A stretch of DNA of 64,000 bases from Eledone cirrhosa (Eukaryota), in the NCBI GenBank assembly GCA_964016885.1, contig OZ024745.1, positions 97,154,001 through 97,218,000 of the forward strand, written 5' to 3'. Below, piece after piece: positions 31,671 through 62,607 of the stretch (the stretch's first letter is position 1; the number at the start of each line of letters is the position of its first letter). The notes beneath the pieces were generated by a model, which saw only the letters and a program-made list of their open reading frames with translations, searched no databases and had not been told where the DNA came from. Made by a program: the position numbers and the translations under genes.

Positions 31671-31759
31671 CCTTTGTATATATTTCTTTAAGTAAGAAAT
31701 ATATTTCACCAATTAATCCGTAAATCACAGTAGTGAAATTCTCGGATGGTCACCAAAGG
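31671..31759 (-). ncRNA. Type I HHR, G3-C8 core variant
   Basis: CCTTTG-GTGACCA-tCC...GGt-GAAA-TATATTTCTT actta AAGAAATATA-TA-CAAAGG. Confidence 0.8.
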
Positions 31760-32445
31760 AGAAGAAGATAACTATCTGCGTTTACAAAGCAAATGCAAAT
31801 CTGTGAATGACTCGAACCACGTGTTGCATTTTTTTTAAATACACAAATTGCACAACGTCATCCCAGTGGCGTAAATAGAACCATCGACAGCCAGAAATAG
31901 CAGCCGAGTCTATTCAACTGAATTAGCTCAACAATCAAGGGGCCGTATATATATCCAAAATTAAAATTAAGGGTTGTCATGTCTGAGAGACATGCACCAT
32001 ATCCACTGTAGAATAAGCTCAAAGATTCCAATGAATATATCCGAGCATTGAATACCAACTAGAGATAGATGTACACATATATATATAAAATAAACATATG
32101 AAACAATCACAGGGAATAATTTATAAAGAATGTAAGCACACATAGCTAGGTAGGTAACTAATTAAAGTTTAACTAGAACTTCAAATATAGATACCTTTTA
32201 AAATGATTATATATATATGTCAATCTATTTCTAGTTGATATATATATATATATATATATATATATATATTTATATATATATATATATATATATATATATA
32301 TATATATATATATATATATATATATATATATATATATATATACATATAAAACCATCCTTCCCAGGATTGAGTTCTAACAACGTTATCAACCCCACCACAA
32401 CGGTGGCTTCCTCTGATATATATAAATATATAAATATATATATAT

Positions 32446-32903
32446 ATACGATATTAAACAAATGGAAACTATATTTATAAAACCATATTTATTTCATTAT
32501 ACATATTTCAGGGATACCATATTAGAAATATGGCATGCCTTCTTCAGATAAAATACAATATATAAGCAGTTTTATAAATAAATTTGACGTACCATAAATA
32601 TTGTTCAACTTCCATTTAAAAAAGTTGGTTTGGTAGTCTTTTTTAAATGGAAGTTGAACAATATTTATGGTACGTCAATTTTATTTATAAAACTGCTTAT
32701 ATATTGTATTTTATCTGAAGAAGGCATGCCATATTTCTAATATGGTATCCCTGAAATATGTATAATGAAATAAATATGGTTTTATAAATATAGTTTCCAT
32801 TTGTTTAATATCGTATATCTACTCCAAAACTTGTTGAGTGCTTTATATCAGTTATAAAATATTTACTCGTTGTAACCCAACAATTTTAAATAAAACTTTT
32901 GCA
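32446..32903 (+). mobile_element. Fold-back pLTR-like insertion in (TA)n with an HHR in each arm (plus core at 32715)
   Basis: Arms ~32446-32625 and ~32638-32817 plus a unique tail. TATTTTAT-CTGAAGA-AGG..ATGCCATAT..ATATGGTAT..CCT-GAAA-TATGTA-TA-ATGAAATA. Same family as 38191-38640. Confidence 0.85.
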
Positions 32904-33389
32904 TATATATATATATATATATATATATATATATGTGTGTGTGGGGGGGGGGTACTGTCGGTTATGTACTGTCTGTGTTTGTGTGTATGTGAGTTATGTT
33001 TAATATTATTGCTGATTGATACGGGTAATATAAATATTTACATAAATCTGACCAGAATGACTAACATACCAGGTGTGTTTGGTCAAAAGGAGCGAACAAG
33101 AGGATTATAACAATGTCAAATAACACAAACCATCTTTGCTAGGAAATAAGACTTTGATGATTATCTGCATTTGGGTCGATATTGTAATTGTTTAGCACCG
33201 GGTTAACCCTGATCCGGATTACATATAGTCAAAAACGTTCCATCTTATGTTTTATTCAGATACAGTTTATGTAGGACAACACTATGGTCCACCATATATA
33301 TATATATATATATATATATATATATATATATATATATATATATATATATATATATATTTCTTTATATATATAGAGATAGATAGATAGAT

Positions 33390-33808
33390 ATATTTCTTTA
33401 TTTACCATAAAGGCATAAAAAGAAGGGACAAATACAAAGGGGGAGTTTACATACAATCGAGTAAAAAGGGTATAAAATGAAAATAATCGAAAATAACCTC
33501 AAAAGGGAGGGGGACGTGATGGGGGTTGCACACACCCCGAAAAAGTGTGCAATCCATTGCCCGGGGAGCACATGGAGAAGGTGCTCCCCTCTCCTTTACT
33601 TCTTTACCTACAGGATGGTATACAGAGAAGGCCCATTTACACGAGCCATTCTCGCCACTATCACCCACCTTTCATAAAACTGCCTGTGGCCAAGCACCTC
33701 TCTCTCCATTCTTATCCTTCTTCCGAAATGATATCGGAAGAAGTAGACCAGACTATGGCCAGAGAGGAAGTTGCCTCACCTTTCAATCGTGTCCACCAAA
33801 CAACCTCT
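33390..33808 (-). mobile_element. 3' fragment of a Tx1-like LINE between (GATA)n tracts
   Basis: Similar to 412-870 (atacagagaaggcccatt..., attctcgccac.atcacccacctttca, agcacctctctctcca). Confidence 0.75.
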
Positions 33809-33863
33809 ATAGATAGATAGATTGATAAATATACACGGGTGTGTATGATTGTGTATAGAAGAT

Positions 33864-34148
33864 TATATTAATAAAAGGAATTCCAACTTTGTCTGATTTA
33901 CTCGTTTTATTTACAATCCTTTAAAATTTATAATGTTATTAGAATGAAATAGTATGGTAGAATATTAAATGTTAAGTGTTAATTGAACAAGTACTTTCAT
34001 GCTTTCGCAATCTTCAGGTTCATAATGTGTGGTGACAGTCAAGTTTAATATTCTACCATACTATTTCATTCTAATAACATTATAAATTTTAAAGGATTGT
34101 AAATAAAACGAGTAAATCAGACAAAGTTGGAATTCCTTTTATTAATAT
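33864..34148. mobile_element. Fold-back insertion with a minimal HHR in its loop (33984-34022, minus)
   Basis: Arms ~33864-33969 and ~34044-34148. TGAAC-CTGAAGA-tTGC gaaa GCAt-GAAA-GTAC-TT-GTTCA. Confidence 0.8.
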
Positions 34149-34192
34149 ATATATATATATATATATATATATATATATATATATATATATAC

Positions 34193-59968: not shown

Positions 59969-60104
59969 CATATATATATATATATATATATATATATATA
60001 TATATATATATAACGAAGGAAATGTGGTAAGGAACCAGGTGGACCATAACGCACCAAAGTACTCAATACTTGAGGTAGTAGAGTGGGTAATAGGAACCAG
60101 TAAG

Positions 60105-60198
60105 ACCCCGACAGCTGAGCTCAAGCCGTTTCGACGGCTAATTCTGGACTAAATGAAAATTTATCCTGGTATTTAAATAGCCGATCTTCTCAAGGGGT
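60105..60198 (-). ncRNA. Type I HHR, U3-A8 variant
   Basis: Reverse complement of the HHR at 61143-61236. Confidence 0.87.
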
Positions 60199-61142
60199 AA
60201 TTCCATATATGGTCAAAGTGATTGTCAAAAATCAGTAGTAATTCTGTGGTTGCAAATTAGTAGGGGAGATGGTGACTAAACCTGCCAGTAGGAGAAAGAG
60301 GGGAGGGGGTGGAGTAGACCCAATCAAGCGTTGGTGGTGCCAGCTACAGCTGGGCATGAGGTCAAAGAAGATACAGGGGAGGGGGAGGAAGTCGGAACGG
60401 TAGGTAGAACAGTATTTCTTGCTTCGCTTTTCTTCTGGGCGGGGTGGATTCTGAATTTATTTCTCCGTATTCTACCTTTATTTCGTACGAACTTGTAGCT
60501 TGTTTTAGATCTTTTAGAGTTAGCATTAGTATATATTTTTCCCGGGACTCAGAATTATTATCTCGTACAAGTTCACTTTGCTGCACTGGGTCGTTGCTGG
60601 CCCGGGATGGAAACCTTTATTGTTTATTTCGTGGTAGTCTCTTTAGTATTTTGGCCCCTTTTGTTGACCCGTCACCGTATCATTTACGTACTTATACCTC
60701 TTAAAAGGGTCTTTGCTTAATCCGTCCCACCTAGTTCTCTTACTTATTTCCTTATTTATTTATTTATTTATTTATTTACTTCTTTCTTTCTTTATTTATT
60801 TTATTCTCGCCTAACAATAGCCTGACACCTAGGTCGTTGAATTTAATTTACTTTACTTTTTCTTTTTCTTTACACTTATTTGCTTTTCTTCACTCTCAGT
60901 ATTTTTTCTTTCCTATTTCTACCCCCCATTGTTCTACCTACCGTTCCGACTTCCTCCCCCTCCCCTGTATCTTCTTTGACCTCATGCCCAGCTGTAGCTG
61001 GCACCACCAACGCTTGATTGGGTCTACTCCACCCCCTCCCCTCTTTCTCCTACTGGCAGGTTTAGTCACCATCTCCCCTACTAATTTGCAACCACAGAAT
61101 TACTACTGATTTTTGACAATCACTTTGACCATATATGGAATT

Positions 61143-61236
61143 ACCCCTTGAGAAGATCGGCTATTTAAATACCAGGATAAATTTTCATTTAGTCCAGAAT
61201 TAGCCGTCGAAACGGCTTGAGCTCAGCTGTCGGGGT
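61143..61236 (+). ncRNA. Type I HHR, U3-A8 variant, GUC site
   Basis: ACCCC-TTGAGAA-GAtCGGCTA...TAGCCGTC-GAAA-CGGCT tgagctc AGCTG-TC-GGGGT. Confidence 0.88.
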
Positions 61237-61357
61237 CTTACTGGTTCCTATTATATATATATATATATATATATATATATATATATATATATATATGTGT
61301 GTGTGTATATATATATATATATATATATATATATATATATATACATACACACACACA

Positions 61358-62017
61358 TCTATATATATAAAACTGAGGATGTCTGTATGTGTGTGTGTGT
61401 GTGTGTGTGTGTGTGTGTGTGTGTGTGTGTCTGTGAGTTTGAATCCCTAAAACTCGAGAAGTACCCAACCGATTTTTTCAAACTTTACATGTGTATTACT
61501 TATGTTTCAGAGAGTCTTATGCAACTTTTTGGAGTGTTATCCAACTCTTTGGTCCTCTAGGGCCCGCATTAGGTGAAAAACTGCGTTTTTTTCAGCTTTT
61601 GGGGGGGTTTTGAGGCGTTACGTCAGACCGATTTCCTTGAAATTGTAACTATGTATTAGTCAGTCTCTTCTTCATACCGTGAGCAAAGAAAATCCAACTT
61701 TTTTAAGGCCTAGGGCCTGCATTAGGTGAAAAACTTCATTTTTTCAGCTTTTTAGGGCTTTTGTGAAGCCGATTTTCCCGAAATTTCAAGGCATATTATG
61801 CACATTAAAAAAAATAATTTTCTTGATCCCCTAGGGGCCGAATTAGGTGAAAACCTGCATTTTCCTGCTTCATCGAAGAAAATCTTAAAGATTATCCAGC
61901 CATCAGAGTATTCGGTTTATTTTCTTTACATATTATCCAGGCATGCAGTTTTTCCACGATTAGGTCTGTTGGCGGCCTGCGTTCCAAAATAACTTATCCC
62001 GTGCAACGCCGGGATAA
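61358..62017 (+). mobile_element. Non-autonomous Helitron, 3' CTAG lost
   Basis: Starts A|TCTATATATATAAAA. Hairpin cccgtgcaacgccggg (61998-62013) resembles that of 20199-20725. Interrupted at 62018 by unit D. Confidence 0.75.
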
Positions 62018-62607
62018 GGTTAAACTCACATGTAATAATTTTTTACACACATCTGACTGTGTAAAACACTTTTCTCTGTGTAATATATTTCTATTTGAGC
62101 TCAGATGAAAATTCTCTGTTCTTCTTCGAGCTAATATTATTATTATTACTGTGAACTGTGGAATACTTTAATCCGATCTTTGTATATTTAACGAGCTCCA
62201 GATTGTAGAGCTAATAATATCGAATGGTTGGGCTGTTCTCTCTAGCATTTTCCCTCAATTCATGAGAGCTGTTATTTGATGCACATAACGCGTGATTTCG
62301 CCCTACTCTGGGCAGCGTGTTATTAGCTTTCTCTCTATCCATTAGGCTAGATGTGTGGTAAACAGTACCCTTACTTGCTGACTGAAGATCCTATGGGATG
62401 TTATACCGCACATTTCTGTGGTGAAACGAACTAAATTCGTATCAGCAAACTTATAGTTATAAAGTTAGTAATTTAAAACTCTACTTCAGAGATTTGATTC
62501 TGACTTAGGTTTTTTTCTATTTAATTGCTAACCTGTAGGTATTGTTCTCCATACAGTAACGGTTAAACTCACATGTAATAATTGTTTACACACATCTCAC
62601 TGTGTAA
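62018..62607 (+). mobile_element. HHR-bearing non-coding unit D (543-bp period, 47-bp terminal direct repeats)
   Basis: ggttaaactcacatgtaataatt.tttacacacatct.actgtgtaa at 62018 and 62561. Shares motifs with the minus strand of units A and B (gctc.gat...gagct.at; gattgt.gagctaa...gaat.g...ggctg.t.t.tct.g). Confidence 0.82.
62375..62448 (+). ncRNA. Type I HHR, canonical C3-G8 core with full stem III
   Basis: TTGCTGA-CTGAAGA-tCC...GGt-GAAA-CGAA ctaaa TTCG-TA-TCAGCAA. Confidence 0.88.

Follow-up and report, generated by a model that had tools for sequence, protein, structure and literature searches.

Hammerhead folds in three ORF-less repeats

The DNA analysed here, referred to as the window, is a stretch of 64,000 nt from Eledone cirrhosa (assembly GCA_964016885.1, contig OZ024745.1, positions 97,154,001-97,218,000, forward strand). 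It contains three repeat insertions, units A, B and D, each with a hammerhead and a 5' flank complementary to its loop II.

31495..31627, + strand: partial inverted copy of the 5' part of A, carrying a second G3-C8 core; a typical PLE insertion structure
31628..32209, - strand: unit A, slightly more than one monomer of an ORF-less repeat (matching a natural tandem unit at 93% over 588 nt)
31671..31759, - strand: hammerhead A, type I, G3-C8, U10.1·U11.1; predicted cut between 31677 and 31676
31762..31785, - strand: 5' flank of A pairing with loop II (31720-31743), from the MFE fold, a duplex test on family copies and pair counts
39128..39732, - strand: unit B, ~1.07 monomers, 3' end running into (TA)n (96.7% over 606 nt)
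39276..39370, - strand: hammerhead B, type I, U3-A8; predicted cut between 39285 and 39284
39371..39392, - strand: 5' flank of B complementary to loop II (39329-39351), from sequence reading and family pair counts
62018..62609, + strand: unit D, ~1.09 monomers (~544 nt), 3' end running into (TA)n (95% over 593 nt)
62350..62373, + strand: 5' flank of D pairing with loop II (62392-62414), from the MFE fold
62375..62448, + strand: hammerhead D, type I, C3-G8; predicted cut after 62441

The inverted copy of A has a mutated stem II base (TCC to TCA). The family monomer of A, taken from tandem copies, is 546-548 nt and that of B 566-569 nt, with head-to-tail dimers of B at loci L097 and L098; tandem spacings of D range from 531 to 631 nt, the value 544 occurring twice. 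The genome holds 1,785 candidates for unit A, 2,480 for unit B and 890 for unit D. Four natural units contain no ATG ORF longer than 73 aa (longest 45-73 aa).

The core heptamers reported in the preliminary description are present: GTGACCA at 31747-31753 (-), TTGAAAA at 39355-39361 (-) and CTGAAGA at 62382-62388 (+), as is tCC...GGt at the base of stem II in A, B and D. A descriptor that leaves positions 3 and 8 free finds full type I folds at all three sites, with the core elements UGA-N-N-A, GAAA and UH, a paired 3-8 position and A as H17. In A, B and D, respectively, stem I has 6, 9 and 7 bp and stem III has 11, 9 and 5 bp, while stem II has just 2-4 bp below a loop II of ~27-39 nt. A purine-pyrimidine pair at 10.1-11.1 is not a feature of the family, the position being U·U in A and B and U·U, A-U, A·C or A·G in D; U·U here is a published natural variant (PMC3088659, PMC7229834). 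The probability of stem III is ~0.96-1.0 in the window copies, which sets them apart from the minimal hammerheads of PLEs, where helix III is absent or tiny and palindromic and dimers are needed.

A stricter descriptor gave 107 matches in 446 kb of family-enriched sequence and none in dinucleotide shuffles, and the family pattern matched 5,610 times genome-wide, compared with 540 for a reversed control. The RNAalifold consensus of 31 A/B copies recovers stems I, II and III and is open at stem I. Hammerhead A scores 141.5 bits with model R1, A itself being in the training set of that model. The compensatory changes claimed for stems I and III are present in stem I of the A/B clade (double changes in 3/8 pairs) but not in its stem III (0/9). 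Strict core positions carry 5 private substitutions where ~15 would be expected from the rest of the element. None of 27 strict core columns has a shared variant, compared with 84 of 1,115 other columns, a difference of limited weight by itself with ~2 expected. The miRNA matches returned by Rfam were microsatellite or hairpin artefacts.

Covariation of the 3-8 pair

Genome-wide, the A/B clade gave 2,574 pattern matches; the figures, being of exact patterns, are minimum values. U3-A8 accounts for 1,730 (obtained by subtraction) and G3-C8 for 483, with 23 G·non-C and 48 U·non-A cases. The remaining 290 matches have A or C at position 3; among the 100 listed, 69 are C-G, from which we estimate ~200 C3-G8. 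The 3-8 pair is thus Watson-Crick in ~94% of the matches, compared with ~53% expected from the margins. Since C-G, U-A and G-C all occur inside the A/B clade, the covariation argument is independent of D. Within types the pair is nearly fixed, B-type copies having U3 and A8 in 45/45 core-covering copies and D-type copies C3 in 29/29 and G8 in 28/29. C-G is likely the ancestral state; the root of the tree is weakly supported (47-62).

Some mismatched lineages were also copied: a U·G lineage has 8 copies at 7 loci, a C·A lineage has at least 8 copies at 4 loci among the 100 of 290 matches listed, and a G·A lineage also left several copies. The preliminary description took three different pairs in one family to indicate selection for ribozyme activity. 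Covariation and the low number of core substitutions agree with this, but the claim was overstated: the A/B counts could stem from as few as two double changes, mismatch lineages were amplified, and selection on a fold does not prove cleavage.

It was also proposed that swapped pairs are rare and that the family may therefore have been overlooked. Indeed, the 150 Rfam matches listed, of 236, include no hammerhead at any of the three units; natural U3-A8 hammerheads, on the other hand, have been published, including ~1,300 matches in Schistosoma PLEs (PMC4209133, PMC3088659). For G3-C8 we found no natural family in the literature searched, where the pair appears only as an engineered rescue mutant. 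A trap formed by ACCA/TGGT pairing, suggested as a hazard for G3-C8 RNA, is not family-wide, as it needs N7 = C, present in 10/29 A-type copies. Its predicted probability is 0.97 without the 5' flank, 0.17 with the flank and near 0 in a copy with N7 = A.

Kinship and genome distribution

The three units had been treated as homologous. This holds clearly for A and B, which are 74.5% identical over 353 nt, and only distantly for D, which has no BLAST match to A/B and aligns with them upstream for ~85 nt (z 5-8, higher than in any of 100 shuffles) but not downstream. The tCC...GGt motif occurs also in an autonomous element lacking body homology and so does not by itself prove one family. Judged by sequence comparison, A and B represent two subfamilies of a single ORF-less repeat (~550 nt), and D is a distant relative. 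An evenly spaced genome sample of 400 kb contained no family member, as expected at ~2 per Mb. No homologue was found beyond this genome in a metagenome pattern scan of 120 stretches or with R1 on 80, where the single match had an E value of 0.51. Two contig sequencing runs of unrecorded type yielded repeat coverage only and have no bearing on expression.

Insertion anatomy and element type

The tandem units are 538-569 nt long, longer than the ~300 bp of a retrozyme monomer, and are ORF-less, arranged head to tail and with a core in each; most insertions consist of 1-2 units. The insertions have the anatomy of PLE copies, with (TA)n targets, an inverted 5' copy, partial tandems and alternative 3' ends. 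Pieces of A/B end 3' at two preferred sites and have scattered 5' ends, and 66/180 exceed one unit. Most inserts read through the predicted cut site. At three loci (L098, L205 and L309) a junction lies at or within 2 nt of it, at L205 at both ends, and of 30 copies retrieved with the downstream arm, one begins there. The excess of junctions at the cut site is not significant, 3/180 BLAST piece starts falling within -3..+1 where ~2 would by chance. Circular folding of four units gave z values of -0.8 to -3.5 and no clear rod.

The U10.1·U11.1 base of stem II matches the autonomous Hydra-type elements of this genome, one family of which has TCC...GGT and C3-G8 in 37/37 matches. A separate young autonomous family in the window is swapped to U3-A8 in 20/20 loci. 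Body homology of A, B and D to the one autonomous Hydra-type family tested was at most z 1.6, and a 16-nt 3' motif is shared with the autonomous element by D only (mean z 3.5, the motif being chosen post hoc; 0.7 for A/B).

Other origins were considered. ARAGORN detected no tRNA gene in 4 loci, where a degenerate head could escape detection, and a tRNA-derived SINE was rejected for want of a tRNA-like head in these loci. Across 90 loci there is no homology common to many of them outside the short repeat. A Naiad parent was considered because Naiad includes "half-core" cases with long spacers; no such link emerged, and ORF fragments next to the units belong to separate insertions.

A helix between the 5' flank and loop II

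Absent from the preliminary description is a helix of ~20 bp that joins the 5' flank to the enlarged loop II. Three divergent clades have it (mean duplex z of -3.2, -2.3 and -2.7 for 22, 5 and 12 copies), with compensatory changes in both clades counted. In the A/B clade pairing of the main helix reaches 88% and 9/14 pairs show double changes, the register of the helix having been drawn from the same sequences as were tested; in the D clade one pair is U-A in 8/13 sequences and C-G in 5/13.

With the flank in the RNA, the energy of the active fold exceeds the MFE by 5.6-19 kcal/mol, and P(stem II) is predicted to be ≤0.17 in every fold of the energy test. Folding predicts that the flank helix disfavours the active fold. 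The same fold is disfavoured when the flank is removed (by 1.9-20.8 kcal/mol), as it is in the autonomous element (by 7.2), and energy modelling therefore cannot identify this helix in particular as the gate. With just ~5-13 nt left to span it, the full helix should be incompatible with a stem II of 2-4 bp.

Discussion

The fold, the three pair states, the covariation between positions 3 and 8, the flank:loop II complementarity and the PLE-style insertions allow us to propose how these repeats are copied. We consider it probable that A, B and D are ORF-less repeats of ~550 nt with a type I hammerhead fold and a covarying 3-8 pair, likely non-autonomous retrozymes copied by the enzymes of Hydra-clade PLEs, in which the flank:loop II helix would gate the ribozyme and cleavage is predicted to be slow. 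Tandem copies would be transcribed and the transcripts cut after UA to unit length by the hammerhead; a cut unit could be ligated to a circle, or the unit could remain within an uncut multimer. The PLE reverse transcriptase would start internally, ~150-300 nt past the cut site, and read through the junction, and such a start would give permuted inserts longer than one unit. The flank helix would leave unit RNA mostly uncut, and, after the distal part has opened, its junction-proximal part could take the role of the usual stem I-II pseudoknot. If source elements needed a paired 3-8 position, this would account for the survival of the swaps from C-G to U-A and G-C.

A more far-reaching version of this reading is possible, and we offer it tentatively: a self-gated hammerhead, whose covarying ~20 bp helix parts the ribozyme halves so that cleavage occurs only with a neighbour's 3' half, in a dimer swapped at stem II and not at stem III, or when a PLE protein opens the helix. 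The family would also be the first case in nature of a G3-C8 ribozyme at high copy number, its single-mismatch lineages marking the route from one pair state to another, and self-gating would protect unit circles.

The same helix could instead be activating. A second helix, of 7 bp, would link the 3' part of loop II to the tail past stem I; the two would form a clamp, holding stems I and II in a four-way junction, and make a fast monomeric ribozyme in spite of a 2-bp stem II. Both helices start directly where stems I and II end, the second reaches 94.7% pairing among A/B copies, and pseudoknots are reported to rescue hammerheads with 1-2 bp in stem II (PMC3088659). Stem III, with 5-11 bp, is stable and makes a stem III dimer unnecessary. 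However, the second helix, which is palindromic and AT-rich, has no double change in its 7 pairs and is not above shuffles (mean z -0.4), and the tail test is null in D and G too. In D, moreover, ~5 nt remain to span a helix of ~17 bp, and most inserts read through the cut site; we regard a clamp as unlikely.

Just as unlikely, in our judgement, is a fold retained for binding or refolding by the PLE protein, with cleavage marginal and dispensable for copying. The PAc PLE provides the precedent, as its hammerhead cut only with protein and catalytic mutants were still inserted in vitro (PMC11167929), and the copies left by the U·G, C·A and G·A lineages and the low P(stem II) in all energy-test folds fit such a role. 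Against it, two separate double changes restored a Watson-Crick pair important for the catalytic conformation, the mismatch lineages are small next to the paired ones, and the strict core lacks shared variants, an argument that is weak alone. Chance amplification of a few paired source copies, with no selection on 3-8, is very improbable: copies are not independent and as few as two double changes are required, but all three large subfamilies are Watson-Crick with ~6% mismatches overall, the separate young family in the window also reached U3-A8, and C-G to G-C requires two transversions.

The 483 or more natural G3-C8 copies, with C-G and U-A sister subfamilies and small mismatch lineages, form a natural test series, which would probe the need for the 3-8 pair, and for cleavage itself, in PLE-type copying, a question raised by PMC11167929. 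The flank helix may be a new off-switch for a hammerhead, and the long loop II and swapped cores illustrate why standard descriptors overlook such motifs.

Comparison with known systems

Weak-stem-II hammerheads with pseudoknots (Perreault et al. 2011, PMC3088659) are reported with 1-2 bp in stem II, U10.1·U11.1, U3-A8 and base-paired contacts between stems I and II. Those pseudoknots are ~4-6 bp and activating, whereas the helix here, at ~20 bp, is apparently too long to coexist whole with the active fold. The minimal hammerheads of the Schistosoma Cercyon PLE share natural 3-8 covariation and were missed by a standard descriptor; unlike ours they lack helix III and keep G10.1-C11.1, and the accessible text has no mention of G3-C8 that we found (PMC4209133).

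Closer are the hammerheads of Hydra-clade PLEs (Craig et al. 2021, PMC8557442, File S2), which are type I and, like ours, come with tails, inverted 5' copies and (TA)n targets; in many of them stem II begins with T10.1·T11.1, as here. Their listed cores are all C3-G8, with a palindromic stem III of 3-4 bp, an ORF and, in the Hydra rows, a short loop II, whereas our repeats are ORF-less, occur in three pair states and have a loop II of ~27-39 nt, a stem III of 5-11 bp and the flank helix. "Half-core" cases in the same paper, with the second half 35-50 nt away, resemble these repeats in spacing.

Metazoan non-LTR retrozymes (Cervera and de la Pena 2020, PMC7229834; bioRxiv 10.64898/2026.07.22.740005) are likewise ORF-less, with type I hammerheads, head-to-tail copies and a proposed PLE origin, and in HHR_Amex2 of the axolotl helix II begins with U·U, as here. 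Their monomers are ~220-400 bp, often in long arrays, with a weak helix III and loop 1-loop 2 contacts (PMC7229834). The repeats described here are 540-570 nt, mostly dispersed and with a strong stem III; their hammerheads are probably a variant form of those in PLE-derived retrozymes and not a new class.

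Hammerhead Folds in the Window

The preliminary description reported three different core heptamers in homologous hammerheads of the repeat units A, B and D, and all three are present where it placed them. With a descriptor leaving positions 3 and 8 free, each unit yields a type I fold:

31671-31759 (-), unit A, G3-C8
39276-39370 (-), unit B, U3-A8
62375-62448 (+), unit D, C3-G8

All three folds have an A at H17, a long loop II and a stem II that starts with U·U followed by CC/GG. A stricter descriptor gave 107 matches in 446 kb of family-enriched sequence versus 0 in shuffles; the surrounding genome measures 3.0 Gb and is rich in AT microsatellites. 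Rfam had no hammerhead match at the three units among the matches listed (150 of 236). The window also holds the following further features:

13652-13733 (-), hammerhead-like fold with C3-G8, a long loop II and C·A as the basal pair of stem II; found again in a locus elsewhere in the genome (L233), hence likely a repeat family
21166-21236 (-) and about 21349-21400 (+), 262-nt inverted repeat holding a canonical minimal hammerhead, C3-G8, whose stem III is palindromic; its Rfam HH9 match, at 31.8 bits, is below threshold
22363-25400, broken ORF resembling that of a Penelope-like element (PLE), after the preceding repeat
25711-26801, 29298-29574 and 43468-44332, pieces of another PLE family, whose frames resemble RT and, weakly, GIY-YIG (Pfam E 0.002)
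41768-41908, near-perfect hairpin enclosing the 3' half of a hammerhead resembling that at 61143-61236; it is the source of the top miRNA matches, which are false
59063-59111 (-), hammerhead-like fold with C3·A8, which may be a decayed copy or a further mismatch lineage
60930-61253 (+) and, as an inverted copy, 60088-60411, the 3' terminus of an autonomous Hydra-type PLE that is very young

Copies, Lengths, and Ends of the Repeat Units

The units are dispersed, with 1,785 (A), 2,480 (B) and 890 (D) genome candidates at first look. At 30 loci per unit, the homology common to many loci ends at the short repeat itself and its tandem or inverted duplicates. Measured on natural head-to-tail copies, the monomer is 546-548 nt in A, 546-569 nt (mostly 568-569) in B and about 544 nt in D; a fourth clade, G, detected by pattern, has monomers of 538-540 nt. 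The longest ATG ORF is 45-73 aa in four natural units. The 3' ends form two clusters, about 150-175 and 277-300 nt beyond the predicted cut site and running into (TA)n, 5' ends are scattered across the entire unit, and in 66 of 180 A/B pieces the length exceeds that of a single unit.

A and B share 74.5% identity. Against A/B, the upstream stretch of D aligns (z 5-8) and its downstream part does not, so that D is, on these alignments, only distantly related. Clade G (L101, L108, L203 and other loci), frequent among genome pattern matches, is nearly all C3-G8 and shares the CC/GG stem II, the long loop II and the flank helix described below. A further hammerhead family with long loop II, C3-G8 and H17 = A lies in the flanks of two loci (L046:2943(-) and L008:2380(-), reverse-strand numbering).

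Covariation of the 3-8 Pair

An A/B-clade pattern with positions 3 and 8 free matched 2,574 times in the genome versus 84 in the control.

Pair states at positions 3 and 8 in the 2,574 A/B-clade matches
State; matches
U3-A8 (by subtraction); 1,730
G3-C8; 483
A or C at position 3; 290
U3 with non-A; 48 (33 being U·G)
G3 with a base other than C; 23

Counted by eye, the 100 listed of the 290 matches with A or C at position 3, a few of which are not family members, comprise 69 C-G, 13 C·A, 4 C·C, 3 C·U, 4 A·C, 4 A·A, 3 A·G and no A-U. From these counts, the three pairs seen in A, B and D all occur inside one clearly homologous clade. The proposed covariation holds at genome scale, about 94% of matches being Watson-Crick versus about 53% predicted from the margins. 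Copies gathered by overall similarity agree (A, G-C in 26/29; B, U-A in 45/45; D, C3 in 29/29 and G8 in 28/29). The pair is also formed in every row of an alignment of 31 sequences (14 U-A, 13 G-C, 4 C-G); since 9 of 38 candidates, fetched for their mismatches, had been removed along with 2 others, and 4 added, the fair measure is the one from the whole genome.

Repeat copies are not independent. In trees built on element bodies with positions 3 and 8 masked, pair states fall by clade, and as few as two double changes suffice for three states. A 33-taxon tree has four changes of pair state when a G·A copy and one C-G copy on a long branch are included. Rooting on D places the root, at low support, among C-G copies. 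Small mismatch lineages have also spread: U·G in 8 copies at 7 loci, C·A in 8 copies at 4 loci among the matches listed, and G·A in 3 copies. Their spread counts against a strict pairing requirement. At the nine strict core positions, 5 private substitutions were seen, where the remainder of the element predicts about 15.

The young autonomous PLE at 60930-61253 (+) belongs to a family separate from A/B and is an independent swap: its hammerhead, also with long loop II, has U3-A8 in 20/20 loci. Its copies are 99-100% identical, with a tandem spacing of 3,553 bp and a 510-aa RT-like frame at one locus (L445).

A Predicted Helix between the 5' Flank and Loop II

The preliminary description did not notice that in A/B, D and G the enlarged loop II has its complement in the ~25 nt immediately 5' of stem I. 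Mean duplex z scores, from copies that include some decayed or truncated ones, are -3.2 for A/B (22 copies), -2.3 for D (5) and -2.7 for G (12). The main helix of the A/B alignment comprises 14 pairs, 88% paired, with double changes in 9. The whole A/B structure exceeds all 500 shuffles for pairing and covariation score, and sliding the register lowers pairing to ~42%, statistics inflated by relatedness and by drawing the structure from the same sequences. In D, one pair alternates between U-A (8) and C-G (5), and 2 of the proposed pairs failed. A second helix, of 7 bp and joining loop II to the 3' tail, could form in A/B only and has no double changes.

The MFE structure includes the flank helix for window copies A and D, not B. 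With the flank included, the constrained active fold lies 5.6-19 kcal/mol above the MFE. Because it also does so without the flank, and in an autonomous element, these energies do not separate out the effect of the helix. Linkers measure about 5 nt in D, 8 nt in G and up to 13 nt in B, lengths from which we infer that the full flank helix would exclude the active fold.

Junctions at the Predicted Cut Site

Both junctions of a B-type dimer within another repeat (L205:2061-3153) lie at the predicted cleavage site and share a TA, and insertions at two other loci (L098, L309) start at the first base past it, with fold-backs. The overall excess of ends at this site is not significant, so these junctions are only suggestive of cutting. 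The dimer was later copied along with its host repeat, giving an inverted duplicate.

Relation to Penelope-Like Elements and Known Hammerheads

Hydra-type PLEs are the likely partner of the A, B and D repeats. Their ORFs are numerous (74,596 genome candidates with one protein query); Pfam did not name them. Together with the genome size and the AT microsatellites, the PLE content suggests an animal genome. Translations of the ORFs contain RWK or RWR, DKT and YRDD, the last of which we take to be a Hydra-clade motif. RWK/RWR and DKT fit the description of the clade in PMC8557442, where PLE insertions also have the 3'- and 5'-end pattern and over-length pieces seen in the A/B/D repeats. One autonomous Hydra-type family ends in a short hammerhead with TCC...GGT as in A, B and D, and with C3-G8 in 37/37 matches. 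Many Hydra hammerheads listed in File S2 of PMC8557442 have T...T where stem II begins, and all of those listed are C3-G8. As this autonomous family has no body homology to A, B or D, and a 16-nt 3' motif matches only D among them, it is no more than a candidate for the exact partner.

By its sequence, the motif is a variant of hammerheads known from PLEs and retrozymes. Natural examples of 3-8 swaps are in print: U3-A8 is reported in Schistosoma PLEs, with about 1,300 matches (PMC4209133), and natural U3-A8, U·U and pseudoknots in hammerheads (PMC3088659). For G3-C8, the portion of the literature searched gave engineered uses only, which does not establish absence of a natural example from print. 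What appears to be new is the high-copy G3-C8 beside the other two pair states in predicted hammerheads of one clade, and the long, putative covarying helix between flank and loop II.
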